Shown one piece after another: positions 2,536-27,130 of a DNA stretch of 45,857 nucleotides. A program made the translations under genes and the position numbers. The notes below the pieces were generated by a model that was not told the origin of the DNA, did not search any database, and saw only the letters and a list, made by a program, of their open reading frames with translations. The stretch's first letter is position 1. Each line of letters begins with the position of its first letter. This DNA comes from Gammaproteobacteria bacterium (GTDB taxonomy: Bacteria; Pseudomonadota; Gammaproteobacteria; Nevskiales; Nevskiaceae). Where the stretch lies: NCBI GenBank assembly GCA_031396825.1, contig JANNLM010000026.1, positions 1-45,857 on the forward strand, in the 5' to 3' direction.

Positions 2536-3656
2536 GACGAGGACCCCTGAGCCGCGCCCAGGGCACCGATGAGACAGCACGCCGCGCCGACCTGAAGAGG
2601 AGCAAAGCCGCTGCCCGGCGTGCGGATGCCGACGACCTGCCCGTGAAAGACGCGCGCCGCGGCGCCGATGACCGAGCCTCTATCGGCAAAGAAGCGAACG
2701 TCGTACTTCCATTGCCGGCCATCGCGGTCGATGACCGGGTGGGGCGCGTAACGCTGGGCCAGATAGTCGTCCGCCGGCAACTCCTCCAACTTGCGACGAC
2801 TGATGCTCTTGCCCACGTACACACCGCGGCTGGAGTATCCGTCGGCAGGCTTGAACACCCATTGGTTTCGCTCGGTGTACCACTCGGGCGCGGAGCGCAC
2901 GCTCATTGGCAAGGTCTCGGCGACGCGGAACGATTGTCCGGTCGTTGCGTCCCGCGCCAGTTCGGCGTGTTTCGACCATTCGATGAAGCGCCGCTTGTCG
3001 GCGATGGCGCGATACGCCTGCGGCGACGGCGCCAGGACGGTGGTTCCCGCCGACACCGCTTGTCGCACCGCCGCGTGTTCGGGTGCGCTCAACTGGAAGT
3101 CGGTGCTGCGCCAGTAGACGCGATCAACCGGTTCGCCTGCGTGACGCAGGCGGCCGTCGCTGAAACCGAGTTCCGCGGCATCGACCACGCGAACGTCTCG
3201 CGCAAACGGTCGCAGCAACCCGGCCAGCGCGTTCATTTCGGCCAGCAAGGGTTGCGCGCCGAGTTGATCGTCCACGATCGCCACCAGGCCGGTCGCCTGC
3301 GCGTCCGGCCCCAGCAGATCGCGGCGGAACAGCGCGAGCAGTCGCTCCTCCAGCATGCCCTGCTCCCAGGCCGCGCAGCAGTCGTTGCCATGCCGGGCAG
3401 CCTGTATCGCCGTGAGTACGCCGCCTGCATTGGTATTGACCTCGATCAGGACAGGACCCTCGGGCGCGGGATGGACGTCGTAACTGAGCAACAGCGGCCT
3501 GGAGTCGGCCAGGGGGTCAGCCGCGAGGATGCGCGCCCACAGCGTTGCGATGCCTCGCGCGATGAGCTTCATCGCCGCCGCCGAGACGGGAATGGCCTGC
3601 TCGAGGATGGGCAGGCCGAAGGGGCTGGACGTCGCCGGGCTCGGGGCCGAGACCAC
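2532..3656 (-). CDS. Circularly permuted ATP-grasp amidoligase (glutathionylspermidine-synthase-like fold)
   Basis: The ATP-grasp nucleotide-site motifs occur in permuted order. The E-x-N type motif ([12 protein letters not shown]) lies N-terminal to the Lys/Gly-rich loop ([17 protein letters not shown]), LAQRYAP and KYDVRFFA. The start is uncertain. GTG 3656 overlaps the upstream stop (TAGTG); the alternative ATG 3572 gives MKLIARG. The ORF-track start at 3902 would overlap the upstream gene. Confidence 0.6.
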
Positions 3657-4120
3657 TACGCGACTCCGGTCGGCGCGACTCGCCGCGTGAGCGCGCGGGC
3701 AAGATAAAAGCTCAGCGGGAAAAGGATCAGCAATTGCGCAATCGGCAACGCCGAAATCGACGTGCCGGGCACGCGTGGCGCGGCATCGGTATACGCCCAT
3801 CGACTCGTCTGCAACGCGTAGGCCTCCACGGCGACGCCCAGGATCAGCGCCATGCCGAGGAGCGTAAACCATACGCCGGCCGACCAGGCGCGATGCGGCC
3901 ACGAAGCGCCATGAATCGCGGCCACCCCGCAGTAGGCGAGCAAGGTCAGCGCCACGTCACCGAGTGTCGCGATCAGCATCGCAGCAGTCGTCGCAGGCGC
4001 AGCGCCATGAACGAAGTAGGGCTGGCACTGCAACCACTCCCAGGCCAGATGCAACGGAGAGCTGATGAGTACGAGCGCGACCAGGAACAGAACGCGGGGT
4101 TGTACCACGCTCACCACCAC
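3656..4120 (-). CDS. Small integral membrane protein (about 4 TM), function unknown
   Basis: 154-aa ORF with four hydrophobic stretches (LFLVALVLISSPL, AAMLIATLGDVALTLLAYCGVAAI, VWFTLLGMALILGVAVEAYAL, ALPIAQLLILFPLSFYLA). A run of GTG start candidates (4120/4117/4114) overlaps the copB stop at 4111-4113. Its own stop overlaps the next start. No family recognised. Confidence 0.5.
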   Translation of the reverse strand: MVVSVVQPRVLFLVALVLISSPLHLAWEWLQCQPYFVHGAAPATTAAMLIATLGDVALTLLAYCGVAAIHGASWPHRAWSAGVWFTLLGMALILGVAVEAYALQTSRWAYTDAAPRVPGTSISALPIAQLLILFPLSFYLARALTRRVAPTGVA

Positions 4121-5049
4121 ATCCGGATGCCCGCCACGAAACGGTGTTCGTTGATCGGATCGCCTTCGGCGCGACGGCGGTCAGCGGTGCCGGCAAAGGC
4201 ACGCTCCCACACATAGCCCACGTAGGGCGCGAACTTCCGGTGCAGCTCATAGCGCAGGCGCAATCCGCCTTCGACATTGCCGAGTCCAGCGCCCAGGCCG
4301 CGCTCGTTTTCCGACTTGCTGTAGGCGTTGGCCTCGATGCTCGGCACCAGGATCAGGCGGTTGGTGAGGTGCAGGTCGTAAGCCGCCTTCGCACGCGCCG
4401 ACAGCCGCCCGTCGTCGCCCACGTAGCCGGTCGCTTCAACTTTGAACAGGAAGGGCGCCAGACCTTCTATGCCCGCGGCCAAGTACGTATGAGCGCCGGC
4501 ACCGAAGTCCTGCCGCAGCCCAAGCTGTGTTCCCCAGAACGCCGTGCAAGGGCGCCACCACAGCACCTCGCCGCTGGTGGTCGGGTCGAGTTCGCCGGGG
4601 ACCTTCAGCCCCTGTGTGCGTAGCCACAGCTTGTCCCGCGCGCCGCCGTAATTCGCTTGCGCATTCCAGGCATAACCCTCGCCCTCGTTGCCGGATACGA
4701 ACTCCAGCTCGTCGAGCAGCACCATGCCAAACACGATTTGATCGGTGGCCTCCATGCCTGGCATGCCGGTGTATTCGTAGCCCTCGGCGTAGGCGTCCGG
4801 ATCGCGTGCGTCCGGCGGCGCGGCGCCGCCTTGCATGGAACCCGTGTCCATCTTCTGCACCGGCGCGCCGGCGGCCGGTGTCGATCCCATGTCCATCCCG
4901 GCCATTGGCTCGGCCGGTGCTGCCGGGACATGCGTGTGTCCAAAGTGACTGGGTGCCGGCTCGCCTGCGGCGGCCGTGTCGAACAACGACAGCATCGCGA
5001 GGCATCCGCTCGCGGCCGCGGCGAGCCCGCTGCCGCGCTTGCGATTCAT
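4111..5049 (-). CDS. copB: Copper resistance protein B (CopB/PcoB outer-membrane protein)
   Basis: Signal peptide MNRKRGSGLAAAASGCLAMLSLFDTAAA, then a Met/His-rich N-terminal region (HFGHTHV, MAGMDMG, QKMDTGSMQG). Conserved CopB blocks follow: DPDAYAEGYEY, LLDELEF and AQANYGGARDKLWLRTQG. The start at ATG 5049 lies 8 nt after the copA stop. Confidence 0.85.
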   Translation of the reverse strand: MNRKRGSGLAAAASGCLAMLSLFDTAAAGEPAPSHFGHTHVPAAPAEPMAGMDMGSTPAAGAPVQKMDTGSMQGGAAPPDARDPDAYAEGYEYTGMPGMEATDQIVFGMVLLDELEFVSGNEGEGYAWNAQANYGGARDKLWLRTQGLKVPGELDPTTSGEVLWWRPCTAFWGTQLGLRQDFGAGAHTYLAAGIEGLAPFLFKVEATGYVGDDGRLSARAKAAYDLHLTNRLILVPSIEANAYSKSENERGLGAGLGNVEGGLRLRYELHRKFAPYVGYVWERAFAGTADRRRAEGDPINEHRFVAGIRMWW

Positions 5050-5057
5050 GCGCGCGT

Positions 5058-6761
5058 TCAGGCGACCACCACTTCGCGGAACATGCCCGCCGCCATGTGA
5101 TAGAGCAGATGGCAGTGGAACGCCCAGCGGCCGGGCGCGTCGGCGGTCACGCCAATGCTGACGCGCTGCGCCGGTTGCACCGAGACCGTGTGCTTGCGCA
5201 CCTGGAAATCGCCGCATTCCGATTCCAGTTCCATCCACATGCCGTGCAGATGCATGGGATGAATCATGTTGGTGTCGTTGGCCAGAATCAGGCGCAGCCG
5301 TTCACCACTGCGGAAGTGGATGGGTTTGGCCTCGCTGTGCCTGACGCCGTCGAACGACCACTCGTAACGCTCCATGTTGCCGGTCAGGTGCAGCTCGATG
5401 TCGCGGCCGGGCTGACGGGCATCGAGCGCGCCGCCGGGCGTGCACAGGTCGGCATAGGTCAGCACGCGCCGGCCGTTGCCGCGCAGGTTGACCCCCGGGT
5501 CGTCGAGATTGGCGCGCGGAGAATCCACGCGCATGTCGACGCCAGGACCGTATTCGCTGCGCGCGTGGCGAGTCTTCTTCGGCATCGGCGCTGCACCACC
5601 GCTGCCGCCGGCCATCGGAGCCATGTCAGCCATGGCAGCCATCGATCCCATCATGTCGGTCTCGCTGAGCCAGACCGGCGCGTCGGGCTTCGGCACTGCG
5701 GCTTCCATTCCGGCACGCGGCGCAAGTGTGCCGCGGGCGAAGCCTGTGCGATCCATGCTCTGCGCGAAGATCGTGTGGGCGCGGTCGTCCGGCATCTGCA
5801 CAATGACGTCGTAGGTTTCGCCGGGGCCGATGCGGAACTCGTCCACCTCCACCGGCTCGACGTCCTGGCCGTCGGTGCCGACGACGCTGAGCTTGAGGCC
5901 GGGGATGCGCACGTCGAAGTAGGTCGCGGTGCCGGCGCCGATGAAGCGCAACCGCACGCGCTCGCCGGCGCGGGCGATGCCGGTCCAGTTGCTCGCCGGA
6001 TTGGCGCCATTCATGAGGTAGGTGTAGGTGGCGCCCGACACGTCGCTGTAGTCGGCCGGGCTCATGCGCGTGCGGTTCCACATGACCCGTCGCTGGTGCG
6101 TGGCAGGCAGCCCGAGGCGGGACCAGTCCGCGAACAGGTCCCTGGCCGCCGGTAACCCGTAGTTGTAGTAGCTGCCCATCTTTTTCAGGTTGAGATACAC
6201 CTGCAGCGGGGCCTCGTCGGTCCAGTCGCTGAGCACCACCGTGTAGTCGCGATCAGCGCGAGTCGGCTGGGGCACGCGCGGTTCGACCACGATGGCGCCA
6301 TACAGGCCGGTCTGCTCATGTAGCGTGTGTGCGTGATACCAATAGGTACCGGTCTGGCGCAGCGTGAATCGGTAGGTGAAGGTTTCGCCGGGTGCTATGC
6401 CCGGAAAGCTGATGCCGGGCACACCATCCATGCCGGGGGGAAGGAGCAGACCGTGCCAATGCACGGCGGTCATCTCGCTCAGCCGGTTGGTCACGCGCAA
6501 GCTGATCGTGTCGCCCTCGCGAACCCGCAGCACCGGCGCGGGCACTTGCCCGTTGACAGCCGTTGCCACGCTGGCCTGCCCGGTGAAGTTCACCGGCAAT
6601 TCGGCGATATCCAGTTCGAACTCGGTGCCGCGCAGTTCGCTTTGCAAACCGCCAGCCGCCAGCAAGCGCGCAGGCCACGAAGCGAGGGCGCCCAGCGCGG
6701 CGGTTGCCACGACACCCTGCACGAAGCGACGGCGGGTGACGGGGAATGGCGGGTTGATCAT
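5058..6761 (-). CDS. copA: Copper-resistance multicopper oxidase CopA/PcoA (three-domain, Tat-exported)
   Basis: Twin-arginine signal (VTRRRFVQGVVATAALGA). Copper motifs HWHG, WYHAH, HPMHLHG and HCHLLYHMAAGM are spread over the whole 567 aa. A Met-rich insert (MMGSMAAMADMAPMAGG) is present. Confidence 0.92.
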   Translation of the reverse strand: MINPPFPVTRRRFVQGVVATAALGALASWPARLLAAGGLQSELRGTEFELDIAELPVNFTGQASVATAVNGQVPAPVLRVREGDTISLRVTNRLSEMTAVHWHGLLLPPGMDGVPGISFPGIAPGETFTYRFTLRQTGTYWYHAHTLHEQTGLYGAIVVEPRVPQPTRADRDYTVVLSDWTDEAPLQVYLNLKKMGSYYNYGLPAARDLFADWSRLGLPATHQRRVMWNRTRMSPADYSDVSGATYTYLMNGANPASNWTGIARAGERVRLRFIGAGTATYFDVRIPGLKLSVVGTDGQDVEPVEVDEFRIGPGETYDVIVQMPDDRAHTIFAQSMDRTGFARGTLAPRAGMEAAVPKPDAPVWLSETDMMGSMAAMADMAPMAGGSGGAAPMPKKTRHARSEYGPGVDMRVDSPRANLDDPGVNLRGNGRRVLTYADLCTPGGALDARQPGRDIELHLTGNMERYEWSFDGVRHSEAKPIHFRSGERLRLILANDTNMIHPMHLHGMWMELESECGDFQVRKHTVSVQPAQRVSIGVTADAPGRWAFHCHLLYHMAAGMFREVVVA

Positions 6762-6814: not shown

Positions 6815-7222
6815 TTACATGTGCGGCATTGCGTCGGGCATCGGCTTGGGATCGGTGCCATCAGGCGGCGGCATCCCCATCGCGTCGTCGTCCTTTTCCA
6901 TGCAACCCATGCCCATGCAGTTCTTTTTCATCGGCGGAGCGGCGGGCGGCTGGTCCATCGCCATGCCGTGGAGACGCTGAAGCTCCCGAACCTGCGCGCG
7001 CAAGGATTTGATTTCCTGCTCCAGTTGCGCGTTGGTGCGCGCCGTGACTTTTGGAGCTTTTGGAGACTTCGCTGCCGGCGCCGGGGTGCCGGGGCTGGCG
7101 GCAGGCGGGGGCATCGGAGCCATGGGCTCCATCTGTGCGTGGGCCGTGGTCACGACCACGCCAAAAGCGAGAGCAGCCGCGGCCACCTGGCTGAGGATCG
7201 TTTGCATCGAATGGATACGCAT
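6815..7222 (-). CDS. Secreted Met-rich protein with a coiled-coil segment (putative periplasmic Cu-binding protein)
   Basis: GGAG lies 8 nt upstream of ATG 7222. Signal peptide MRIHSMQTILSQVAAAALAFGVVVTTAHA. The mature part holds MEPMAPMPPP, a helical stretch (LEQEIKSLRAQVRELQRL) and a C-terminal CMGMGCMEKDDDAMGMPPPDGTDPKPMPDAMPHM. Confidence 0.55.
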   Translation of the reverse strand: MRIHSMQTILSQVAAAALAFGVVVTTAHAQMEPMAPMPPPAASPGTPAPAAKSPKAPKVTARTNAQLEQEIKSLRAQVRELQRLHGMAMDQPPAAPPMKKNCMGMGCMEKDDDAMGMPPPDGTDPKPMPDAMPHM

Positions 7223-7255
7223 TGGGGTAACTCCGGGCAAGCGGGTGAAGAAACG

Positions 7256-7579
7256 TCAGGGGGTCTTGTGCTGATGCGGCCCGAGTTCGACGGGCGCCGC
7301 CTCGTCCGAGCTATGGCAGTCCTTCATGTGTTGTGCGGGGTCCATGCCCTGCATGCCGCGCGTATGCGGCATGGGATGGTCCGTCGGTTCGTGCGCCATG
7401 CTCTCGGTGCCGGCCTTGGGCACGCAGGTGATGACGGGCAAATTGGCGTGATCGTGCAGCCTGGGGTCCATGCCTTGCATGCCGCGGGTCTGCGGCATCG
7501 GGGCTTGTCCGTCGGCGGCACAGGCCGACACGCCACAAACCAGGACCAAAGCGGCCAAGCTGAGAGTCAACTTGTTCAT
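7256..7579 (-). CDS. Secreted (probably lipoprotein) Met/His-rich protein with an internal duplicated motif
   Basis: GGAG lies 7 nt upstream of ATG 7579. Signal/lipobox MNKLTLSLAALVLVCGVSAC. The motif MPQTRGMQGMDPRLHDH is repeated as MPHTRGMQGMDPAQHMKD. The DNA-level repeats are at 7338-7375 and 7463-7501. Confidence 0.6.
   Translation of the reverse strand: MNKLTLSLAALVLVCGVSACAADGQAPMPQTRGMQGMDPRLHDHANLPVITCVPKAGTESMAHEPTDHPMPHTRGMQGMDPAQHMKDCHSSDEAAPVELGPHQHKTP
7338..7375 (-). repeat. Intragenic direct repeat, copy 1 (encodes MPHTRGMQGMDP)
   Basis: gggtccatgccctgcatgccgcgcgtatgcggcatggg here versus ggggtccatgccttgcatgccgcgggtctgcggcatcgg at 7463-7501. Confidence 0.8.
7463..7501 (-). repeat. 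Intragenic direct repeat, copy 2 (encodes MPQTRGMQGMDP)
   Basis: Near-identical to 7338-7375 with a few mismatches; the two copies are about 125 bp apart. Confidence 0.8.
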
Positions 7580-7672
7580 GAAAGCACTCCGAATGTGAGT
7601 ATTTGCAGTGGATTGCATATTTCAGGATAGGTCTGAAGTTTGGCCGCCTCTGTACGCTGCCGCGCGTACCCC

Positions 7673-8449
7673 TCAGTGATGCTTGTAAAGGCCGACTCCA
7701 ACGATGTCGTTCCAGCTTGTGGTGTTGTGGCACTCGAAACACTGATCGACACGGGCGCCCTCCTTGCCAGATACCCTCTGTGACACCATCGCAAAGTGCC
7801 CCATCAGATGACTCGGTGGCGGCTGATGACACTGCACGCAGTCCCTGGAACTGGGAGACGGATGCTGGTAACCGGGCACGACCCAGGAGGCGAATGCATG
7901 GCACTGCGCACAGTCGTTGCCGAAGCGCTTGAAGTGGGGGTCCTTGCTGTCGTGGCAGCCGGCGCAATGCAGGGCCTCGCGCGCAGTGCCGGCATCGAAC
8001 TGCTCGGGGCTCCTGATGCGCAGCCAAGTCTCCAGCGACTGGAGCGTGGCGGCGCTATCGGGGTCGCTTTGAGATGCACTTGCCAGCGTCCGTGCCCCGA
8101 CCCTGGCGAGCGCCAGATGATCCATCACCACGGGCCTGGCGCCCGCCGCCTGATGTTCGATATGGCAGGCCGAACACTCCTGCACGCTCGCGTGGAACGC
8201 CGTCGGCTGACGCCCAAGCAGTCGCTCCGCATTCGCATGGCAGCTTGTGCACTTCGCCACTGTCACACCGACGGCAGGCTCATGGCACGCGCTGCACTGG
8301 TTGCTCAGAGTGGCATGGCGCGGCGATAGCGGGCCGGGACTCACCAGTTGCCGCGCCGCCGCCGTTACTGGCGCGACGGTGCTCACGGCAAGCACCCCTG
8401 CGGTGATCAGCACCAGCATCAGCACCAGCCAAAGTGCCGCGCGCCTCAT
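7673..8449 (-). CDS. Heptahaem c-type cytochrome, N-terminally anchored or secreted
   Basis: Seven CXXCH motifs: CSACH, CTSCH, CSACH, CAGCH, CAQCH, CVQCH, CFECH. N-terminal hydrophobic segment RRAALWLVLMLVLITAGVLAV. ATG 8449 forms an ATGA overlap with the upstream stop; GTG 8458 is an alternative start. Confidence 0.8.
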   Translation of the reverse strand: MRRAALWLVLMLVLITAGVLAVSTVAPVTAAARQLVSPGPLSPRHATLSNQCSACHEPAVGVTVAKCTSCHANAERLLGRQPTAFHASVQECSACHIEHQAAGARPVVMDHLALARVGARTLASASQSDPDSAATLQSLETWLRIRSPEQFDAGTAREALHCAGCHDSKDPHFKRFGNDCAQCHAFASWVVPGYQHPSPSSRDCVQCHQPPPSHLMGHFAMVSQRVSGKEGARVDQCFECHNTTSWNDIVGVGLYKHH

Positions 8450-9189
8450 TGCAGCCACCGCAGGCCGAAGTAGATTCCCGACGCGATGTGCAGCGCAAGC
8501 AGGCCAAAGAAGGTGATGGATAGAACGATGTGCAGATTCAGCGAGCGGGCGAACCAGCGCTTGAAGAACTCATCCATGCGGATCGCATACTCGAGATCGG
8601 CCACCGACTCGGCGATGCGGGTGACCTCGGCGGTGGGGCCGTGCGCCGGCAAGTCGATCCCCAACGATGCCAGCCCTGCCATGAGGGCGGACGCCCTCGA
8701 ACGCGCGCGTATTTCCGCCGGCGCGGTCTCCAGCACGCCCCAGGCACTGTCGAGATCGCCGCGCGCGGTCTGGAGTAGCAGCAGCTTGTCCTTGATGTCG
8801 TGGCTGACGTAGGTCAGCAGATAGCGCACGGCAAGGCCGCTCACCACCACCATCAGCAACACCGCCGTCAGCGCCACGCCCAGCGGGCTGTCGAACTTGT
8901 GGCCGGTATGGATGATCGCCAGCAGCGGGCCGAAGATGCCCGCGTAAACATGCAGAGTCATCCACGACTGCATCGAGAGGTGCGGCGTGATGCGGTCGTG
9001 AATCCAGGGCACGCGCTTGACCAGTGGGTAGGCCAGCGGCACCAGCATGAGCAGCGCGCCGGCAATGCCAAATGCAGAGCCCATGCCACTGCCCGCGAAG
9101 CGCGGTGCGCGATGCAGCAGAAAGCCGAGCCAGGCGAGCAGCAGCACGCTCGCCACCCCAAGCACCACGATGCGTTCCCGCGCCTTCAT
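8446..9189 (-). CDS. 5-TM membrane protein with two His pairs (putative di-haem b electron shuttle, ferric-reductase-domain-like)
   Basis: Predicted TM3 is LHVYAGIFGPLLAIIHTGH and TM5 is LHIVLSITFFGLLALHIAS. Each carries two His exactly 14 positions apart. An amphipathic soluble insert of about 80 aa separates TM4 and TM5. ATG 9189 lies 3 nt after the upstream stop. Confidence 0.65.
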   Translation of the reverse strand: MKARERIVVLGVASVLLLAWLGFLLHRAPRFAGSGMGSAFGIAGALLMLVPLAYPLVKRVPWIHDRITPHLSMQSWMTLHVYAGIFGPLLAIIHTGHKFDSPLGVALTAVLLMVVVSGLAVRYLLTYVSHDIKDKLLLLQTARGDLDSAWGVLETAPAEIRARSRASALMAGLASLGIDLPAHGPTAEVTRIAESVADLEYAIRMDEFFKRWFARSLNLHIVLSITFFGLLALHIASGIYFGLRWLQ

Positions 9190-9192
9190 GGC

Positions 9193-11226
9193 TCAGGCCG
9201 CGACCACGCAATCGCCCTTGGGCTTGGCTTGGCAGGCAAGGATGATTCCCTTGGCCTTGTCCTCGGCATCGAGCGCGTCGTCCACCGCCATCTCGACCTC
9301 GCCGGAGGTCATCGCGACCTTGCAGACCCCGCAGGTGCCGACGCGGCAGGAGAACTCGATGCCGATGCCAAGCTCTTCAGAGAGTTCGAGAACCGTCTGG
9401 TTGGGGCGGCTTCTGGATGCCTTGTTGTTCCTGGAGAACGTCACCAAGGGGCCAGTGGCCGGCGCCACTGGGGCCGCGGCGGTGCCTGCGGCGGCGGGTT
9501 GCGGCGCGGCGGTGCCGAAATCTTCGGCCTTCACCTGTTCGGGTGGCACGCCCAGTTCAGTGAGCAGCGCCTTGACCGCTTGCATCATGACCGGAGGGCC
9601 ACAGAGATGGACACGGCGCGTCGTGAGCGCGGGCACTGCTTCCGTGAGTAGCCTTCCCGTGATGCGTCCGATGGGCCCGGCCCAGTCGGTGCCTTCCGGT
9701 TTTTCCATCGTCACGGTGACGTGAAGGTGGGGGTTGCGTTGCTGGAGTGCGAAGAGGTCTGCGGCAAAGATGAAATCAGGTGGCGCACGGCAGGCATAGA
9801 AGAAATAGATGTCGCCCGGCCAGGCGCTTTCGGTGAGGGTGCGTGCAATGCTCATCATCGGTGTGACGCCAACGCCTCCGGCGATCAGCACGATGCTGCT
9901 CGCCTCCGCACCGGTAAACGTGAACTTGCCGACCGGCCCACCGACGTCGATCACGTCGCCCACCTTGAGCAGATCATCCAGATGCCGCGACACCGCACCG
10001 CGTGGCTCGCGTTTGACGGTGATATCGACAAAGCCGCGCTGCGTTGGCGACGAGGAGATGGAGTAGGAGCGGTTCATCTTGGCGCCGCCAATCCACAGTG
10101 AGAGATTGAGAAACTGGCCGGGCAAAAACGTGAACGGCAGCAGCCCCGCGCCCGATGCAGGCAGCAGGCGCAGTGTTTTGACGCTCGGCGTTTCGACGAT
10201 GACGCTCCCAACCCGAAGCTGCCCCAGCCACTTTGCGGTGACGGGTGGAGCCACAGAGGTGGCGTCCGCGTCCGCGGCCGCAGGCTCGACTTTCTGTACT
10301 GCGCTGGCTGCGGCTGATGTATCGGCTGGTGTGTTCGGTGTGTCGTTTGGTTCCGTCGGTGGTGGCTTGCCGCTGGCCGACGGTGTCGCCGGCGGTCGGC
10401 CCGGTGGGCCGGAGAGAGGCGGTGAGGAGCCCGGCGGCAGCCCGCCAGAGCCACTTTCCAGACGCCCAAAGAGTGCAGCGGCGCGTCGCATCTTGAGGAC
10501 ATAGATGACGACCATCGCCACTGCAAAAGCGACCAGCAGCAGCATCGTGACCAGGTGAAACGCTTTGACACCGCCAGAGGTCTGTGGCGAATCCGCAGTG
10601 ATTGGCGACGCGAGATTCATCTCGCGCCTGAACCAGTCCAATGCAAGGTTGCGTGGCGCCTTGCCGTCCGACAGCACCCGTCGCGCGGCGATGCCCGCTC
10701 CCATCTGATCGAGGCCCTCGCGCATCAGGCCAAGCGCTTGCTGCATGGCGACGTTGTCGCCAGCGTGTGCCGCGCGCTCAAGCGACTCGGCGCCGGTCGC
10801 GAGTCGCGCCATGCCTTCGTCGAGCTGCTGGCTCGACAGCGCGTCGATTTCGGCGCGCATCGCAGGCGTGAGCGCAGGCAGCGTCATCAGCGAGGGATAG
10901 ATCGGTGTCTTGGCTGCGGCGGGCGGCATCATCTGGCTCATCATGTCCATCATCCCGCCCATGCCACCCGCCATCGCCGGTGCCCCGGGCGCGCCGGATG
11001 CCGCTGCGGGAGCCGCCATGGGCGCATTCGGGGCCATCCCCGCTGCAGCAGGTTGACCAGCGATTTCAGCCATCGGTGCGCCGTCCGCCACGGCCGGTGC
11101 GGCGGGTGTGCCTGCGGCGTCCGCGCCGGGGTGATGGCTCTCGTGCTCGTCTGTCGTCTGTGCGTTTGACGGAAGCGCGATGAGCGCCAACGCCACCACA
11201 ATGCTGCCGATGAGTCCTCGTTCCAT
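9193..11226 (-). CDS. Bitopic fusion protein. Order: signal peptide, Met-rich periplasmic domain, one TM, Pro-rich linker, FNR-type FAD/NAD(P)H oxidoreductase, 2Fe-2S ferredoxin.
   Basis: Start ATG 11226 (MERGLIGSIVVALALIALPSNAQ) overlaps the upstream stop as TGATG. Periplasmic part: MAGGMGGMMDMMSQMMPP plus helical repeats. TM: FHLVTMLLLVAFAVAMVVIYVL. FNR motifs: RSYSISS, LIAGGVGVTPMMS, HLCGPPVMM. Ferredoxin motif: CRVGTCGVC...ILACQ. Confidence 0.8.
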   Translation of the reverse strand: MERGLIGSIVVALALIALPSNAQTTDEHESHHPGADAAGTPAAPAVADGAPMAEIAGQPAAAGMAPNAPMAAPAAASGAPGAPAMAGGMGGMMDMMSQMMPPAAAKTPIYPSLMTLPALTPAMRAEIDALSSQQLDEGMARLATGAESLERAAHAGDNVAMQQALGLMREGLDQMGAGIAARRVLSDGKAPRNLALDWFRREMNLASPITADSPQTSGGVKAFHLVTMLLLVAFAVAMVVIYVLKMRRAAALFGRLESGSGGLPPGSSPPLSGPPGRPPATPSASGKPPPTEPNDTPNTPADTSAAASAVQKVEPAAADADATSVAPPVTAKWLGQLRVGSVIVETPSVKTLRLLPASGAGLLPFTFLPGQFLNLSLWIGGAKMNRSYSISSSPTQRGFVDITVKREPRGAVSRHLDDLLKVGDVIDVGGPVGKFTFTGAEASSIVLIAGGVGVTPMMSIARTLTESAWPGDIYFFYACRAPPDFIFAADLFALQQRNPHLHVTVTMEKPEGTDWAGPIGRITGRLLTEAVPALTTRRVHLCGPPVMMQAVKALLTELGVPPEQVKAEDFGTAAPQPAAAGTAAAPVAPATGPLVTFSRNNKASRSRPNQTVLELSEELGIGIEFSCRVGTCGVCKVAMTSGEVEMAVDDALDAEDKAKGIILACQAKPKGDCVVAA

Positions 11227-11993
11227 CACTTGCCTCTCGTTGCGTTGGTGGCCTTGGGAACCGCCGCGGGTGCGACGGTGCCAAGCAGTGCGCGACGCTG
11301 ATCGTCGGTCAGAACGCGGGCGGCCTCGCCAACCGCCCGGATGAATGCGATCCGTCGATCGCCTCTCAGTTTTTCGATGTCGCGCACCTTGGTTTTGAGC
11401 GCCATGGAGTCGGGCTGGTCGGATCCCGTGAGCAACCACAACTCCTGCTCCGCCTGATCGATCTGGCGCTGCACTGCCGCCACATCCCCCATCGACTTTT
11501 GCTTGATTCGGTTGAGAGCGACGGCCTGGTCCGTGCTCAACTTGAGCGCCGTGGAGTAGTCGAGGAAAAAGCCGGTCGCGCCGACGTGGTAGATGTGCGA
11601 GACGCCAGGAAAGCCCGGCAGGTCGGACTGCATCGTCGGCGGTGGCGACCCCGCCGCGCTCATCTTCCCCATCATTTCGCCGCAACAGCCTGCGGCCGCG
11701 GGCATGGTCATCGCGGGCGGGTTGGCCGCACCGCTCGTTGTCCTCGCATCAGCCGCCGCCATTCCGCCGGGCGGTACCCCGGTCTTGAAGTTCCGGCCTT
11801 GATGGCTCTTTTCGAGTGCAGCCTGGATCGCCGCGAGCCGCACTCTGACTTGCGCGATCCCCTGCCCGAGTTTCGCCGTCGGTGGCGTACTCATCGCGGC
11901 CACGGCAGGCCTTTCGCTTGCCAACGGCATCTCTTGAGCGAACGCACACGGCATCAGAATCAGGGTGGTCGCAACGAACAGCAGCGCGATCAT
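11226..11993 (-). CDS. Periplasmic CpxP/Spy/CnrX-like (LTxxQ-type) Met-rich heavy-metal stress protein
   Basis: Signal peptide MIALLFVATTLILMPCAFAQ. Met/Cys-rich segment PPAMTMPAAAGCCGEMMGKMSAAGSPPPTMQ. Two LTxxQ-like helices (LSTDQAVAL and LTDDQRRAL), as in the CpxP/ZraP/heavy-metal-resistance family. Confidence 0.65.
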   Translation of the reverse strand: MIALLFVATTLILMPCAFAQEMPLASERPAVAAMSTPPTAKLGQGIAQVRVRLAAIQAALEKSHQGRNFKTGVPPGGMAAADARTTSGAANPPAMTMPAAAGCCGEMMGKMSAAGSPPPTMQSDLPGFPGVSHIYHVGATGFFLDYSTALKLSTDQAVALNRIKQKSMGDVAAVQRQIDQAEQELWLLTGSDQPDSMALKTKVRDIEKLRGDRRIAFIRAVGEAARVLTDDQRRALLGTVAPAAVPKATNATRGK

Positions 11994-12117
11994 CGTGGGC
12001 TGCCTTTACCGGAGACGTTGATCGATGAATAGGCATGAACGTTACCCGCATGTCGCTCCAGCCTCTGTCCGTTAGCGCACAGAGCCCGCCCGATTGCGTT
12101 GGTACGGTCGCCGAACA

Positions 12118-13134
12118 ATGCAACTCGGCATGGTTGGACTGGGCCGGATGGGCGGCAACATGGCGCGCCGGCTGATGAAGGGCGGGCACCAGTGCGTTGT
12201 CTTCAACCGGACGCCGCAGAAGGTGGCAGATCTGGTCAGGGAGAATGCAGTCGGTGCCTCCTCTGTGGCGGAGCTCGTCAGGAAACTGCAGAAGCCGCGA
12301 GCGGTGTGGTTGATGCTGCCCGCAGGCGTCGTCGACACGTTCATCGGCGAGCTGCTGCCGCTGCTGGAGCCCGGTGACGTCCTGATTGACGGCGGCAACT
12401 CCTGCTACGTCGATGACATACGGCGCGCAAAGGAGCTCGCGCCGAAACAGATCCACTATCTGGACGTAGGGACCAGCGGCGGTGTCTGGGGATTGACCCG
12501 GGGCTACTGCATGATGATCGGTGGTGAGAAGAGCGCCGTGCAGCAGCTCGACCCCATCTTTGCCACGCTTGCGCCCGGCCACGGCGACATCGCGCGCACT
12601 GTCGGGGGTGAGAACCTCGGCGGCACATCCGAGCAGGGTTATCTCCATTGCGGGCCGAGTGGCGCCGGGCACTTCGTCAAGATGGTCCACAACGGCATCG
12701 AGTATGGCCTGATGGCAGCCTATGCCGAAGGTCTCAGCGTCTTGCGGCAAGCAAACATCGGCAAACAGCCGAACGATTCCGACGCCGAGACGACGCCACT
12801 CTTTGCGCCAGAGCACTACCAATATGATTTCAAGCTTGGGGAGATTGCCGAAGTCTGGCGGCGAGGGAGCGTCCTGGCATCCTGGCTGCTGGACCTGACG
12901 GCAGCGGCGTTGGTGAAGGACTCCAGCCTTTCGCAGTTCGACGGTCGAGTGTCTGACTCGGGCGAAGGTCGGTGGACCATCAAGGCTGCGACCGATGAAG
13001 GAGTGCCGGTGCCGGTGCTCGCTACCGCGCTTTATTCGCGCTTCGCCTCCCGAGGCGAGGCGGACTTCCAGGGCAAGGTGCTATCAGCCATGCGGTACGG
13101 ATTCGGCGGCCATCTGGAGAGGCCCCCGAAATAG
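12118..13134 (+). CDS. gnd: 6-phosphogluconate dehydrogenase (decarboxylating), short form
   Basis: MQLGMVGLGRMGGNMARRL Rossmann start. Conserved GGNSxY, DVGTSGG, YCMMIGGEK and HFVKMVHNGIEYG blocks. ATG at 12118. Confidence 0.85.
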   Translation: MQLGMVGLGRMGGNMARRLMKGGHQCVVFNRTPQKVADLVRENAVGASSVAELVRKLQKPRAVWLMLPAGVVDTFIGELLPLLEPGDVLIDGGNSCYVDDIRRAKELAPKQIHYLDVGTSGGVWGLTRGYCMMIGGEKSAVQQLDPIFATLAPGHGDIARTVGGENLGGTSEQGYLHCGPSGAGHFVKMVHNGIEYGLMAAYAEGLSVLRQANIGKQPNDSDAETTPLFAPEHYQYDFKLGEIAEVWRRGSVLASWLLDLTAAALVKDSSLSQFDGRVSDSGEGRWTIKAATDEGVPVPVLATALYSRFASRGEADFQGKVLSAMRYGFGGHLERPPK

Positions 13135-13143
13135 GCGCAGCTC

Positions 13144-14544
13144 ATGAACGATTCCCACTCCGATGCCCTCGTCTTCTTTGGGGCCACCGGCGACCTCGTC
13201 TTCAAGAAGATTGTTCCGGCACTCTACGCAATGGAGCGGCGGGGCCATCTTCAGGTGCCGGTCATCGGCGTCGCGAGGTCCGACTGGACCATCGATCGTT
13301 TCCAGGCTCGCGTCCGTGAGAGCGTTCAGAAGCACTGCGAGCTTGACGAGGCGGTGTTCGCGAAGCTCGCCAGCCGGCTTCGGTACATCAGCGGCGACTT
13401 TGGCACTTTGGCCACTCACGCCGCTCTCCGCAAGGAGCTTGGCAGCGCCGGGCACCCGCTTCACTACCTCGCAATCCCCCCCAGTGTTTTTGCGGGTGTC
13501 GTGGAAAAGCTCGGCCAGTCGGGCTGTGCCCGCGGCGCGCGCGTTGTCGTCGAAAAACCCTTCGGTCGCGACCTTGCGTCCGCGCAGGCGCTGAGCGCGA
13601 CGCTTCACTCCGTTTTCGACGAGGCGAACGTCTTTCGCATCGACCACTACCTTGGCAAGGAATCGGTGCAGAACCTGCTCGTGTTCCGTTTCGCCAACAG
13701 CTTCCTTGAGCCGTTCTGGAACCGGGACCATATTCAGAGCGTACAAATCACCATGGCCGAGAAGCCTGGCGTCGAGGGCCGTGGCAGCTTCTACGAGGAG
13801 TCCGGCGCAATTCGCGACGTGATTCAGAACCACATTCTCCAGGTCGTGGGCTTCCTCGCGATGGAGTCGCCGCTCATGGCAAGCAATCAGGCGATCCGCG
13901 ATGAACAGACAAAGGTGTTCAGGAAGATCCGTCCTTTGCGTCCGCAGGACCTGGTGCGAGGTCAGTTCCGTGGCTACAGGGAAGAGAAGGGCGTCGCGCG
14001 GGATTCCAGTGTGGAAACGTTCGCCGCCGCGCGGCTCAGCATCGACTCCTCACGATGGCAGGGCGTCCCTTTCTTCATCCGCGCGGGAAAGTACCTCCCT
14101 GCGACAATGACCGAGGTGTTGGTCATGCTGAAACAGCCCCCACTCAGCAGCCTCTGCCCCGGCCAGCCGAACTATGTGCGCTTCCGGCTGAGCCCTGACG
14201 TGACGATTGCCATCGGGGCCCGTGTGAAGCGCCCTGGCGACGAGTTGATTGGTGATCTGACGGAACTCAAGGCTGTCAGCCGCCCGCAGGCGGATGAGAT
14301 GGATGCCTACGAGCGACTCTTGACCGATGCCATGAAAGGGGACGACACGCTGTTCGCGAGTCAGGCCGGGGTCGAGGCCGCCTGGGCTGTCGTTCAACCG
14401 GTTCTGGGGTCGGTGACCCCCCTGCATGACTACCCACCCGGTTCCTGGGGCCCAGCGGAAACTGAGCAGCTCATGGCGGGACTCTGTGATTGCGACAGCC
14501 CAGTCTGGCTCCTGCCTCACGGTGAAGGCGGAGCGAGGGAGTGA
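13144..14544 (+). CDS. zwf: Glucose-6-phosphate 1-dehydrogenase
   Basis: [15 protein letters not shown] motif, the RIDHYLGKE signature, and [11 protein letters not shown]. Confidence 0.92.
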
Positions 14545-15305
14545 CTAAGCCTACGGTCATCATCGAAGAGAGCCTCGATGCGCTGACCGAGCGGGTCGCG
14601 GAGGAGTTTTCGAAACAGGCAGCGCAGGCCCTCTCCTCGAGGAAACATTTCACTTGCGTGCTCTCGGGCGGCTCCACGCCGGTGGCCCTGTATGCCTTGC
14701 TCGCGCAGACGGCCCGCTACCGCAACGGGATCGATTGGAAGAGGGTTCACTTCTTCTGGGGCGACGAGCGCCACGCAGGCCCTGACGCTCGTGAAAGCAA
14801 CTATCGGATAGCCAAGGAAGCGATGCTCTCGCCGCTTGAGATTCCATCCGGGAATGTCCACCGCATCCTCGGCGAGCTCACCAGCGCGGAAGACGCTGCG
14901 GTCGCCTATGACGAGGAGCTCGGGCGCTTCTTCGGGTTGAAGCCAGGAGCTCTCCCGCGCTTCGATTTCGTGCTGCTGGGGATGGGCGCCGACGGACACA
15001 CCGCCTCGCTCTTCCCCGGAATCCCGCAGTTGGACGATACGCGCAGGAGGGTGCTGGCCCCGTGGGTGGAGAAGCTGGCGGAATTTCGGGTCACGCTCAG
15101 CCCGCTGACGTTCAATGCCGCAGCCTGCGTGCTGTTCCTGGTTGCCGGACGGGAGAAAGCACCGACCCTGAAGGCGGTGCTCGAGGGCCCGCGCGCTCCG
15201 AACGAACTGCCGTGCCAACTCATCCAGCCCGACCGCGGGGAACTCGTGTGGGCCCTGGATCAGGCCGCGGCCAGCCAATTGAAAACCTGCCCATTGCATC
15301 AATGA
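14541..15305 (+). CDS. pgl: 6-phosphogluconolactonase
   Basis: The GTG start overlaps the zwf stop (GTGA). LSGGSTP, FWGDER and [16 protein letters not shown] motifs are present. Confidence 0.85.
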
Positions 15306-15407: not shown

Positions 15408-16781
15408 ATGGAGCTAGGGTTCTACGGCGCAACGGGCACGGTCACCGGCTCGAAGTATCTCCTGAGCACGGAGCGTTCGCGCATCCTCATTGACTGCGGA
15501 CTGTTCCAGGGCTTCAAGCAACTGCGCTTGCGCAACTGGTCAGCGCCGCCCTTCGACCCGGCGGCGCTCGACGCCGTGGTGCTGACCCACGCGCATCTCG
15601 ACCACACCGGCTACCTGCCGCTGCTGGTCAAGAACGGCTTCAAGGGGCCGGTGTACTGCACCGAGGCCACCAAGGCGTTGTGCGGCATCCTGCTTCCCGA
15701 CAGCGGCAGGTTGCAGGAGGAAGAGGCCGAGCACGCCAACCGCAACCGCCGGTCGAAGCACTCGCCCGCGCTGGCGCTCTACACGGAAGCGGACGCCCTG
15801 AAGGCGCTCGAGCAGCTGAAGCCGTGTGCTTACGACACGGCCTTCGACGCGGGCCCGGGCCTGTCGGCCAGCTTCGCCCCAGCCGGCCACATCCTCGGCT
15901 CGGCGATGATCCGCATCACGGACGGCAAGACGCGCGTCGTCTTCAGCGGCGATCTCGGCAGGCCCGTGGATTCCATCATGCGGCCGCCGGCCCCGTGCCC
16001 GGAGGCGGATTACCTCGTCATCGAGTCGACCTACGGCAACCGGCGGCACGACGCGGCCGACGCGCATGCCGAGCTTGGCAAGGTGATCCGGCGCACGGCC
16101 GAGCGTGGCGGCGTGGTCGTGATTCCCTCCTTCGCCGTCGGGCGCACGCAAAGCCTGCTCTGGTGCATCCATCGCCTGAAGGCGCAGGGCCTGATTCCCG
16201 CGACCCTGCCGGTGTACCTGAACAGCCCGATGGCGGTGAGCGTCACCGCCCTCTACCACCGTCACCGCAGCGAGCATCGCCTGACGCCGGAAGAATGTGA
16301 CGCCATGTGCCACGCCGCGCACATCGTCAATACGGTCCAGGAATCCCAGGCCTTGAACGAGCGGCACGGGCCCATGGTGATCATCGCGGGCAGCGGCATG
16401 GCCACCGGTGGGCGCGTGGTTCATCACCTCAAGGCGTTCGCGCCGGACCAGAAGAACACGATCGTGTTCGCCGGCTTCCAGGCCGGCGGCACGCGCGGCG
16501 CGGCGCTGATGGCGGGCGCCGAGACCATCAAGATCCACGGCCAGTATGTGGCCGTGCGCGCCGAAGTCGTCGCGCTCAGCAACCTGTCGGCGCACGCCGA
16601 CCAGGCCGAGATGCTGGACTGGCTGCGCCGCGCGCCCCGTGCGCCGCGCACGACCTTCATCACCCACGGCGAGCCGGCCGCCGCCGATGGCCTGCGGCTG
16701 CGAATCGCCGAGGACCTGCACTGGGACTGCCAGGTGCCGGAGTACCTGGAGCGGGTCACGCTCGACGCACCGGAGGCCTGA
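15408..16781 (+). CDS. Beta-CASP family metallo-beta-lactamase-fold (RNA-metabolising type) hydrolase
   Basis: MBL motifs HAHLDH, PAGHILGSA and SGDLG. Beta-CASP motifs A (ESTYG), B (VVHHL) and C (SAHAD). Length 457 aa. Confidence 0.8.
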   Translation: MELGFYGATGTVTGSKYLLSTERSRILIDCGLFQGFKQLRLRNWSAPPFDPAALDAVVLTHAHLDHTGYLPLLVKNGFKGPVYCTEATKALCGILLPDSGRLQEEEAEHANRNRRSKHSPALALYTEADALKALEQLKPCAYDTAFDAGPGLSASFAPAGHILGSAMIRITDGKTRVVFSGDLGRPVDSIMRPPAPCPEADYLVIESTYGNRRHDAADAHAELGKVIRRTAERGGVVVIPSFAVGRTQSLLWCIHRLKAQGLIPATLPVYLNSPMAVSVTALYHRHRSEHRLTPEECDAMCHAAHIVNTVQESQALNERHGPMVIIAGSGMATGGRVVHHLKAFAPDQKNTIVFAGFQAGGTRGAALMAGAETIKIHGQYVAVRAEVVALSNLSAHADQAEMLDWLRRAPRAPRTTFITHGEPAAADGLRLRIAEDLHWDCQVPEYLERVTLDAPEA

Positions 16782-16784
16782 TCA

Positions 16785-18275: not shown

Positions 18276-19159
18276 AGCCGCTGGTTCTCGGCCTGCCGCA
18301 CAACGAACGCCTGGTGCAAAGCCTGGTCACCTTGCTGGAGGGCGATGCGGGGACGCTGACGGTCCGGCAGTTTCCCGACGGCGAATCGTATGTGCGCGTC
18401 GAGTCGGACGTGCGCGGACGCACGGTTGTGCTGGCCTGCGGCCTGGACCGGCCGGACGCCAAGGTTCTGCCCTTGTATCTCGCGGCCCGAACGCTGCGGG
18501 ACCAGGGCGCTGCGCGCATCATCCTGGTCGCCCCTTACCTGGCCTACATGCGGCAGGACAGGATTTTTCACGAGGGCGAAGGCATCAGCGCGCGGCACTT
18601 CGCCGCCTGGCTGTCGTCCTTTGTCGACGGCATCGTGACGGTGGACCCGCACCTGCACCGCATCCACAGCCTCGCGGAGGTCTACCCGATCGCCTCGCGC
18701 GTCGTGACTGCGGCGCCCGCAATCTCGCAATGGATTCGCGAGCAGGTGCCGAAGGCCGTGCTGGTCGGCCCCGACGCCGAGAGCGAGCAGTGGGTCTCGC
18801 AGGTCGCGCGTGAGGCCGGAGCGCCCTTCGTGATCCTCGAGAAAACCCGGCGCGGTGACCGCGACGTGGAAGTGTCGGTGCCGCAGATGGCGCGCTGGAG
18901 TGAGCACACGCCGGTGCTGGTCGACGACATCATCTCCACCGCGGGCACCATGATCCAGACCGTCGGCCACTTGCGGCAGGCCGGCATGCGCGCACCGGTC
19001 TGCATCGGCGTGCATGCGATCTTCGCCGGCCCGGCTTACGAGGATCTGGTGGCCGCGGGCGGCGAGCGCATCCTGACCTGCAACACGATCGTGCACCGCT
19101 CCAACCAGATCGACGTCCACCCGCTCGTCGCCCGATCGGTGCTGAGCCTCCTCGCGTGA
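18272..19159 (+). CDS. Ribose-phosphate diphosphokinase (Prs) family paralogue
   Basis: ATGA overlap with the upstream stop. APYLAYMRQDR matches the Prs motif YxxYARQDR. VLVDDIISTAGT is the PRPP loop. Length 295 aa. Confidence 0.8.
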   Translation: MKPLVLGLPHNERLVQSLVTLLEGDAGTLTVRQFPDGESYVRVESDVRGRTVVLACGLDRPDAKVLPLYLAARTLRDQGAARIILVAPYLAYMRQDRIFHEGEGISARHFAAWLSSFVDGIVTVDPHLHRIHSLAEVYPIASRVVTAAPAISQWIREQVPKAVLVGPDAESEQWVSQVAREAGAPFVILEKTRRGDRDVEVSVPQMARWSEHTPVLVDDIISTAGTMIQTVGHLRQAGMRAPVCIGVHAIFAGPAYEDLVAAGGERILTCNTIVHRSNQIDVHPLVARSVLSLLA

Positions 19160-19235
19160 AGCGACCCCCCGTAGCCGGACTCGCTGGCCGCCCATGGCTT
19201 GCGCCAAGCAGCGTCCGGAGCGAGACTGCCTCGCG

Positions 19236-19637: not shown

Positions 19638-19640
19638 CGT

Positions 19641-19664
19641 AAAGCCGCGCTTCGCGGCTTTTTG
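19641..19664 (+). terminator. Rho-independent terminator after the copL-like gene
   Basis: aaAGCCGCgcttcGCGGCTttttg: a 6-bp GC stem (19643-19648 / 19654-19659), a 5-nt loop and a T-run, 4 nt after the stop codon. Confidence 0.6.
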
Positions 19665-19714
19665 CTGCCGCCCCGTTTGGACGGCACGCGTTCAGGTGAA
19701 CAGACGGAGGTCCT

Positions 19715-22740: not shown

Positions 22741-22759
22741 GGCCTGTTCAGGAGCAACC

Positions 22760-23413: not shown

Positions 23414-23431
23414 CACACCCGGAGAACATGC

Positions 23432-27128: not shown

Positions 27129-27130
27129 AT

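Follow-up and report, generated by a model that had tools for sequence, protein, structure and literature searches.

A conserved reductase–cytochrome triad beside copper-resistance genes as a candidate NADPH-driven periplasmic cupric reductase

The stretch of DNA analyzed here, referred to as the window, comprises the 45,857 nucleotides of contig JANNLM010000026.1 (assembly GCA_031396825.1) from a gammaproteobacterium of the family Nevskiaceae. Its minus strand carries a run of eight same-strand genes that extends from g1, at 11993, down to copB, at 4111. An earlier reading of the letters alone (the original prediction) had proposed that six consecutive open reading frames (ORFs) in this run, g1 to g6, form an undescribed electron conduit from NAD(P)H to the periplasm at the head of a copAB operon. 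All six ORFs are present where that prediction had placed them. The conserved core, however, is not six genes but g2-g3-g4, i.e., a flavin/iron–sulfur reductase, a candidate di-haem cytochrome b, and a heptahaem cytochrome c, often accompanied by g1 (about 60% of loci). We propose, at roughly even chances, that this core with its frequent companion g1 uses NADPH to send electrons outward for copper handling, probably as a cupric reductase of the periplasm.

The genes of this run are tightly packed. The g1/g2 junction is TGATG (1-nt overlap at 11226), g2 and g3 are joined as TGAgccATG at 9189-9195, and g3 and g4 share ATGA, a 4-nt overlap at 8446-8449, all exactly as first described. The gaps that follow measure about 54-93 nt (g4-g5), 15-48 nt (g5-g6), and 53 nt (g6-copA), and copB starts 8 nt past copA. 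The claim that copA and copB come directly after g6 is confirmed by matches to TIGR01480 (805.5 bits, cut-off 479, NCBIfam) and PF05275 (232.7 bits, cut-off 27, Pfam), respectively. Judged from this spacing, co-transcription of g1-g6 with copAB is plausible; a promoter and terminator scan gave no signal above shuffled controls.

Scanning one genome per species provided a sample of 67 loci, in which neighbours were counted by tblastn with the window proteins; counts given as "with room" refer to loci that extend far enough for the neighbour in question. In every one of the 67, g3 is directly preceded by the C-module of g2, and g4 lies directly downstream of g3 in all 63 with room, whereas a g1 homologue is found upstream of g2 in 31 of 53 with room. 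The expected co-occurrence of the gene set in other genomes therefore holds for g2-g3-g4, which are adjacent and collinear throughout, but only in part for g1 and not for g5 and g6, whose distribution is restricted. The hosts of the triad span more than eight phyla, the loci coming from Nevskiales, Methylococcales, Burkholderiales, Myxococcota, Planctomycetota, Verrucomicrobiota, Acidobacteriota, Elusimicrobiota, and others. The closest loci are from Nevskiales (76-82% identity), and identity across phyla is typically still 65-75%, which suggests horizontal spread of the module. The order g2-g3-g4 is repeated in contigs of Methylobacter and Hydrocarboniphaga with called genes. In addition, the module is present on 54 plasmid records, 27 of them conjugative, with hosts including Sphingobium, Alteromonas, Legionella, Bradyrhizobium BTAi1, Variovorax, Methylocystis, and Spirosoma, where it is annotated as "hypothetical", "iron reductase", "2Fe-2S cluster-binding", or "cytochrome c3 family". 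Isolates with the module are known from Variovorax, Methylotenera, Pseudoduganella, Legionella, Sphingobium, Alteromonas, and Bradyrhizobium. The conservation of ligands and motifs across more than 60 orthologues is far beyond what would be expected by chance. Plasmid pBBta01 of Bradyrhizobium sp. BTAi1 (locus L075) carries three g3-family copies; an IS3 element inserted in g2 truncates one triad, a Spy/CpxP-family gene precedes another, and glycogen-debranching and DUF3141 genes lie between the triad copies.

The C-terminal part of g2 (residues 366-670) exceeds the Pfam cut-offs for FAD_binding_6 (56.9 bits), NAD_binding_1 (69.3 bits), and Fer2 (54.4 bits), and it also matches, weakly, the ferric-reductase-type family NAD_binding_6 (PF08030). 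The motifs RSYSIS, GGVGVTP, and CGPP and the cysteines C627, C632, C635, and C665 are kept in at least 90% of 60 orthologues. This C-module shares its domain order, FAD_binding_6 - NAD_binding_1 - C-terminal plant-type Fer2, with PaaE, Hcr, and GbcB. However, g2 scores below the NCBIfam equivalog cut-offs of all three (GbcB 216.8 vs. 500, Hcr 189 vs. 383, and PaaE 168 vs. 421 bits), and it differs from them in being membrane-tethered, with a periplasmic domain, and in being paired with cytochromes rather than with an oxygenase or a hybrid-cluster protein. Hydropathy detects a single internal transmembrane (TM) helix at residues 223-244, which together with the N-terminal signal would place the Met-rich N-domain outside and the FNR-Fer2 part inside. 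Pfam and hydropathy thereby agree with the bitopic architecture originally drawn for g2, namely a signal peptide, a Met-rich domain, one TM helix, and FNR plus 2Fe-2S domains. A conserved C479-R480 pair, which resembles NADPH-type motifs of NOX and CPR, is a lead only.

The N-module and C-module of g2 are fused in 37 loci, including the arrangement of the window, and are encoded by separate genes in about 18 of 60. In the latter, found in Verrucomicrobiota, Planctomycetota, and some Myxococcota and Acidobacteriota, a 4-nt overlap joins a bitopic N-module of 265-395 aa to a soluble FNR-Fer2 protein of about 360 aa; this split/fusion pattern argues for a functional tie between the two parts. Among 53 N-module sequences, H32, M99, M100, Y110, P117, R124, H224, L231, and F234 are invariant, and H28, H31, M96, M114, M228, M238, and Y242 are at least 96% conserved. 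Conserved positions make up an E-H-x-x-H-H-P motif (H28, H31, H32) just behind the signal peptide, a Met cluster (M96, M99, M100, M114), and one face of the TM helix (H224, M228, L231, F234, M238, Y242), and the N-module motifs are retained in distant plasmid clades (Alteromonas, Legionella, Sphingomonas). Cu(II) sites are usually marked by His-rich motifs and Cu(I) sites by Met-rich ones, and the motifs of the N-module are putative copper sites. AlphaFold2 (AF2) models of the N-module are confident only for a helical hairpin (121-202) and the TM region (222-257); profile searches found no Pfam or PDB relative, and Foldseek was uninformative. Assignment of the N-module as a Metal_resist domain akin to g1 was rejected (hhalign probability 3%), and an LTxxQ-like "LT(P)EQ" stretch common to g1 and the N-module is a lead only. 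Protein P0176, a seemingly natural fusion of FNR-Fer2 with g3, is not used as evidence, since its linker looks like frameshifted translation.

For g3, hydropathy and the AF2 helices give five helical membrane segments, with H80 and H94 on the third helix and H220 and H234 on the fifth, both pairs 14 positions apart, in accordance with the original description. The corresponding His spacings of NOX are 14 and 13. In 66 orthologues, H26, H80, H94, H97, H220, and H234 show no variation; among 31 representatives with identities as low as 25%, invariance is kept only by these His residues: H80, H94, H220, and H234; K58, G118, G242, and W245 are likewise invariant there. The four TM His on which the haem assignment depends are thus conserved in close and distant relatives alike, and their pattern matches the expectation for a pair of bis-His haems that are stacked across the membrane. 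The g3 of the window has no Pfam match at threshold and no NCBIfam model; it matches DUF4405 weakly (13.7 bits), and against Ferric_reduct (PF01794) it gives nothing at an E of 0.1 or better. Among 32 diverse g3 relatives, the recurrent families are DUF4405 (15 relatives, best E 2e-4), Ni_hydr_CYTB (PF01292; 11, 2.4e-5), and Ferric_reduct (9, 0.0026, weak), with no others. All three are di-haem b families, which suggests kinship of g3 at the superfamily level, not membership. A profile search against the PDB returned nothing meaningful, the putative ferric reductase 5o0t appearing only at an E of 1.3. A protein database clustered at 90% contains 1949 homologues of g3 at an E of 1e-3 or better, nearly all of 247 aa and unnamed. 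One homologue, P0126 (545 aa), has a C-terminal extension of about 290 aa, presumably DUF547-like.

The seven CXXCH motifs of g4, counted already in the original prediction, prove near-invariant, with fixed spacing in 61 of 63 orthologues, and exactly seven more His are invariant (H45, H86, H99, H111, H172, H196, H214), which points to seven bis-His haems and no open catalytic site. The protein lies above the Pfam cut-offs for Cytochrome_C7 (PF14522, 32.2 vs. 24.8 bits) and Cytochrom_c3_2 (PF14537, 31.1 vs. 25 bits); its sole NCBIfam match is below cut-off, and a profile search found no PDB relative.

An N-terminal hydrophobic signal or anchor segment is present in g1, g2, g4, g5, and g6 according to hydropathy and AF2 helices. 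The description of g1 as a CpxP/CnrX-like Met-rich protein is borne out by a match to Metal_resist (PF13801), though marginally (30.9 bits, Pfam cut-off 29.2), and the ZraP equivalog of NCBIfam is not reached (13.9 bits, cut-off 200). The small protein g5 contains 8.3% Met and 8.3% His against a background of about 2.8%, and g6 contains 11.9% Met. Composition and N-terminal segments agree with the claim that g5 and g6 are two secreted Met/His-rich proteins, but g5, which carries a VSAC lipobox and a duplicated TRGMQGMDP motif, is probably a lipoprotein. By tblastn, homologues of g5 are found only in three Nevskiales loci (L005, L016, L047) and those of g6 only in L005, L016, and L017, again close Nevskiales relatives; because of this restriction, both genes are placed outside the conserved unit.

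Copper genes are frequent around the triad. Of the 29 loci with full flanks, 20 have full-length copA and 19 have copB at a distance of at most 10 kb. Over all 67 loci, full-length copA lies that close in 32, downstream on the same strand in 24 and elsewhere or on the opposite strand in 8; the downstream same-strand copies are at most 150 nt from g4 in 8 loci and within 1 kb in 13. ORF clustering over the same loci gave counts of 43 for copA-type multicopper oxidases (MCOs), 27 for copB, and 20 for Cu-type P-ATPases, and a P1B ATPase homologue is located within 10 kb of the triad in 21 of 67. The proposal that the module heads a copAB operon does not hold for every locus, and a hydrogenase-linked clade exists (see below). 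No common regulator emerged from the neighbour counts, a MerR-type gene being present in only 4 loci, and no CopC or CopD match was obtained among the scanned window ORFs, which do not include every small ORF.

The genes gnd, zwf, and pgl, divergent from g1 in the window (Table 1), are candidates for a dedicated NADPH supply to the module. In 15 of the 67 loci, drawn from several phyla, a zwf gene is found no farther than 10 kb from the triad; the number expected by chance is estimated at less than one locus. In locus L077, the genes form the string gnd-zwf-g1-g2-g3-g4, with 4-nt overlaps at zwf/g1, g1/g2, and g3/g4, followed by copA, copB, and an ATPase. Furthermore, the glucose-6-phosphate dehydrogenase (G6PD) next to g4 bears an N-terminal YHS metal-binding domain in L076 and in three Verrucomicrobial loci (L076:5661-7265, L025:8336-9940, L038:6184-7794, and L049:13913-15532), and the copper ATPase of the window shares the YHS domain with these fusions. 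To our knowledge, the YHS-G6PD architecture has not been described previously; it suggests metal-regulated NADPH production. The NADPH-supply genes, absent from the original prediction, are the strongest additional support for its electron chain. Other recurrent neighbours are PF10091 "glycoamylase" genes (13 loci, often right after g4), CBM48 genes (11), and zinc-dependent alcohol dehydrogenases (Zn-ADH, 8).

Table 1. Coordinates of the genes and protein features of the module and its immediate neighbours in the window
Feature	Position	Strand	Length	Description	Basis
g1	11226-11993	minus	255 aa	secreted Met-rich protein, CpxP/Spy/ZraP-like C-terminal domain	
g2	9193-11226	minus	677 aa	periplasmic Met/His domain + TM + FNR + 2Fe-2S ferredoxin	
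g2 signal peptide	11158-11226	minus			hydropathy
g2 periplasmic Met/His domain	10561-11157	minus			hydropathy
g2 TM helix	10495-10560	minus			hydropathy
g2 FNR-type FAD/NAD(P)H reductase module	9502-10221	minus			PF00970, PF00175
g2 plant-type 2Fe-2S ferredoxin	9196-9444	minus			PF00111
g3	8446-9189	minus	247 aa	5-helix membrane protein, candidate di-haem cytochrome b	
g3 His codons	H80 8950-8952, H94 8908-8910, H220 8530-8532, H234 8488-8490	minus			
g4	7673-8449	minus	258 aa	heptahaem cytochrome c, N-terminal signal or anchor	
g5	7256-7618	minus	120 aa	small Met/His-rich probable lipoprotein, lineage-specific accessory	
g6	6815-7222	minus	135 aa	small secreted Met-rich protein, lineage-specific accessory	
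copA	5058-6761	minus	567 aa	Tat-exported copper-resistance multicopper oxidase	TIGR01480, three Cu-oxidase domains
copB	4111-5049	minus	312 aa	outer-membrane copper resistance protein B	PF05275
Cu-type P1B ATPase, YHS + HMBD	226-2580	minus		downstream end of the copAB-strand gene string	Pfam
gnd-like 6-phosphogluconate dehydrogenase (6PGDH)	12094-13134	plus		divergent from g1	Pfam
zwf (G6PD)	13144-14544	plus		divergent from g1	Pfam
pgl	14541-15305	plus		divergent from g1	Pfam

Domains, ligands, and linkage support the order of carriers originally predicted, i.e., NAD(P)H, FAD, 2Fe-2S, haem b, and haem c. In the mechanism that we propose, a conduit of four modules would bypass the quinone pool. 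Cytoplasmic NADPH, partly supplied by the co-encoded G6PD and 6PGDH, would reduce the FAD of the g2 FNR module, from which electrons would pass to the 2Fe-2S cluster of g2, still on the cytoplasmic side, then to the inner and outer bis-His haems b of g3, and from the outer haem b into the periplasm, to the seven bis-His haems c of g4. The periplasmic domain of g2 would bind copper, its EHxxHH motif being suited to Cu(II) and its Met cluster to Cu(I), and would, with g1, present or receive the metal. The most likely reaction would be a reduction of Cu(II), taking place at or close to g4 and the N-domain of g2, and the resulting Cu(I) could then be held by the Met-rich proteins g1, g5, and g6 or handed to Cu(I)-specific machinery, the conduit working alongside CopA, CopB, and the P-type ATPase. 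We infer haem b binding, the contacts between subunits, the use of NADPH over NADH, the outward direction, and copper as the acceptor. The linkage to G6PD and 6PGDH argues for NADPH specificity. Cu(II) reduction is favoured because the reductase carries a copper-type periplasmic domain and has Met-rich partners in g1, g5, and g6, and because Met-rich binders, P1B pumps, and Cus handle copper solely as Cu(I).

The predicted chain follows the logic of NOX/FRE and of MsrQ-Fre systems. NOX and FRE proteins likewise transfer electrons from cytoplasmic NAD(P)H through flavin and two bis-His haems b on helices 3 and 5 to an external acceptor, in the case of FRE a metal ion (PMC3591440). The weak NAD_binding_6 match in g2 and the weak Ferric_reduct matches in some g3 relatives add to the resemblance. 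The NOX/FRE-like character claimed for g3 therefore stands as regards the His pairs on helices 3 and 5, but g3 has 5 TM helices instead of 6, it has no Ferric_reduct match itself, and a plant-type 2Fe-2S step is added between flavin and haem. Moreover, the system of the window is split over several polypeptides, its dehydrogenase is a separate protein with its own TM helix, a heptahaem cytochrome c extends the wire, and the reductase bears a periplasmic Met/His domain. The MsrQ (YedZ)-Fre pair resembles the module in that an FRD-type haem b membrane protein fed by a separate cytoplasmic, NAD(P)H-dependent FNR-like reductase serves a periplasmic partner, MsrP, for stress repair (PMC12525009). 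However, YedZ and STEAP proteins have an Arg in place of the first canonical haem-binding His (PMC3591440), whereas g3 keeps all four His, and the partner in the module is a multihaem cytochrome rather than a molybdoenzyme, with no MsrP gene present. Reductive repair of oxidized Met ligands in the manner of MsrPQ, one of the roles originally suggested, is rejected, since a molybdoenzyme partner is missing from every locus.

In Geobacter CbcL/CbcBA and in systems of the NapC/CymA type, a membrane b-type or anchored cytochrome and periplasmic multihaem cytochromes c convey electrons to metals, a likeness to g3-g4. Those systems oxidize quinol, whereas the module has an NAD(P)H-FAD-2Fe-2S input and no recognizable quinol site, and solved multihaem structures show no sequence relationship to g4. 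With copABCD and pcoABCDE, the locus shares canonical copA and copB and accompanying Met-rich periplasmic proteins, but no CopC/CopD family match was found among the ORFs scanned next to copAB, and a literature search found no counterpart of the redox triad plus NADPH-supply genes in described cop, pco, cus, and cue systems. We regard the module as a candidate transmembrane NAD(P)H-dependent metalloreductase of a variant type, with a heptahaem cytochrome c of the sort otherwise seen in quinol-dependent metal reducers. In the literature searched, the only account of the module concerns Orf1 and Cyt of Alteromonas. These are distant relatives of g3 and g4, at 36% identity; a g2-like gene precedes them, and all motifs are kept. 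Weyman et al. reported them to be dispensable for hydrogenase activity in E. coli and assigned no function (PMC3102683). The Alteromonas macleodii plasmid pAM1A3 (L072, 6288-13786) has a distant copy of the module (g1-like, g2, g3, g4) that is followed at once by the genes for the HynSL [NiFe] hydrogenase and by hyp genes instead of by copAB, and the module may serve HynSL as its redox partner. No characterized pathway in the literature searched or among the NCBIfam equivalogs claims these genes, and the possible refutations named in the original prediction that could be examined in silico all came out in favour of its reading at the level of sequence.

Other acceptors and directions of electron flow have to be weighed against Cu(II) reduction. 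The same conduit could pass electrons from g4 to an oxygen-derived acceptor, namely H2O2 or superoxide in the periplasm, or to CopA through its type-1 copper, and would then act as a copper-stress antioxidant or oxidase. Its tight linkage to the O2-reducing MCO CopA and the co-encoded NADPH supply speak for such a function, and NADPH-dependent peroxide detoxification is known from copper-defence operons, e.g., copZ-prxgrx-gorB of Bordetella. We nevertheless regard it as improbable, as the haems of g4 all appear to be bis-His with no open site, which is atypical for a peroxidase, Pfam and NCBIfam scans of the module proteins found no peroxidase-type domain, and the conserved Met/His copper-type motifs of the g2 N-module would be left unexplained. 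Generic electron disposal at low oxygen, in which surplus NAD(P)H from glucan and pentose-phosphate fermentation would be dumped on any oxidant in the periplasm or outside the cell (e.g., Fe(III), Mn(IV), Cu(II), or humics) and the copper genes would be mere neighbours, is suggested by genes for phosphoketolase, acetate kinase, transaldolase, Zn-ADH, CBS, BON, and DUF302 proteins, and a beta-CASP RNase that occur in the window and at related loci. A similar gene content is found at the low-oxygen locus lxa of Burkholderia, with which the island of the window has acetate kinase, Zn-ADH, and a metal-dependent RNase in common (PMC3721108), and the mobility of the module on plasmids and the full-flank loci that lack copAB point in the same direction. 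However, no outer-membrane porin-cytochrome partner was seen, the Met/His motifs of the g2 N-module and the YHS-G6PD fusions tie the module to a soft metal, and copA starts no more than 70 nt past g4 in 8 loci, so that we consider this function unlikely as well.

Electrons could also flow inward, from a periplasmic donor through g4, g3, and the 2Fe-2S/FAD centres to NAD(P)+, the clearest candidate donor being H2 via HynSL in Alteromonas. In pAM1A3, the triad stands directly upstream of hynD-hupH-hynSL-hyp, the H2/H+ couple is reducing enough for NAD(P)+ reduction, and FNR-type modules are reversible in principle. The copper clade, in contrast, encodes no low-potential periplasmic donor, Cu(I) oxidation would be unable to drive NADP+ reduction, the co-encoded G6PD and 6PGDH produce rather than consume NADPH, and in E. 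coli HynSL activity does not depend on Orf1 and Cyt (PMC3102683); we consider inward flow highly improbable. That unrelated redox proteins have come together by chance, without forming a functional unit, is scarcely credible in view of the cross-phylum adjacency (67/67 and 63/63), the stop/start overlaps, and the fusion and split variants, all of which contradict it.

Several observations weigh against a cupric reductase. The g3 protein lacks a Pfam match at threshold, its AF2 model is poor (predicted local distance difference test, pLDDT, of 70 and predicted TM-score, pTM, of 0.49, with 36 homologues), and Foldseek against the PDB gave only generic long-helix matches and no fold assignment. 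About a third of the loci with full flanks (9 of 29) have no copAB within 10 kb, and the promoter scan and the neighbour survey identified no copper-responsive regulator or promoter. The hydrogenase-adjacent clade of Alteromonas indicates that the conduit may be generic, and the low-oxygen-type neighbours (acetate kinase, Zn-ADH, beta-CASP RNase) fit a redox-balancing role. Finally, making Cu(I) beside CopA, an MCO that oxidizes Cu(I), looks futile; a futile cycle would be avoided if the reduction and CopA acted at different oxygen levels, times, or places or on different pools.

In Gram-negative bacteria, control of the periplasmic copper oxidation state is a question still to be solved. Only Cu(I) is accepted by Cus pumps, Met-rich chaperones, and P-type ATPases, whereas oxic settings supply Cu(II), and the known periplasmic enzyme, the MCO, works in the oxidizing direction only and requires O2. 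An NADPH-fed reductive wire, if confirmed, would be the missing half of a periplasmic copper cycle and a rare case of bacterial export of reducing power without the quinone pool. More tentatively, and with doubt prevailing, the locus may represent a mobile, self-powered copper-defence machine, in which a copper-sensing (in some loci YHS-fused) G6PD and a quinone-independent NADPH wire would set the Cu(II)/Cu(I) balance at a Met/His domain borne by the reductase itself; this would make it the first cupric reductase of the bacterial periplasm to depend on NADPH, and functionally a bacterial equivalent of FRE and STEAP, the metalloreductases of eukaryotes. The module is abundant (about 1,950 clusters at 90% identity) and resides on conjugative plasmids alongside metal-resistance genes, and it bears on metal co-selection, bioremediation, and copper-based antimicrobials. 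Cultured hosts exist, which opens the hypothesis to direct testing.

Further genes of the window are noted here. Behind copB, on the minus strand, 3656-4120 encodes a conserved 4-TM protein of 154 aa and 2532-3902 an ORF of up to 456 aa, neither with a Pfam family; homologues of the latter follow copB in L005, L017, L012, and L052. A second P1B-type ATPase, with an HMA domain, is located at 31942-34440 (minus). An apparent second copper/redox cluster at 19715-23932 (plus) combines an outer-membrane efflux protein (OEP), an MCO of two domains (21316-22740), a cytochrome c (22571-23413), and a SnoaL/DUF4440 protein, and the set of OEP, MCO, cytochrome, and SnoaL also appears in L004 at 16783-20744. 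A trio encoding a beta-CASP metallo-beta-lactamase RNase and thymidine-phosphorylase-like and PRPP-synthetase-like proteins at 15408-19159 (plus) recurs near the triad in L047 and L071.

A group of genes on the minus strand (24732-30823) comprises phosphoketolase (24732-27128), acetate kinase (27131-28795), PF10091 (28333-29655), and transaldolase (29738-30823); the acetate kinase and PF10091 ORFs overlap as listed, which implies that one start is over-extended. Further loci and plasmids (L001, L006, L074) likewise have PF10091, CBM48, ROK, and phosphoketolase genes in the vicinity of the triad. An ORF of 2,899 aa at 35878-44577 (minus), with GH94 supersandwich and catalytic domains and PF10091, has the predicted architecture of a cyclic beta-1,2-glucan synthase of the Cgs/NdvB type, and because of this glucan-synthase-type ORF, periplasmic beta-1,2-glucans, and not glycogen, may be what the PF10091 proteins encoded near the triad act on.

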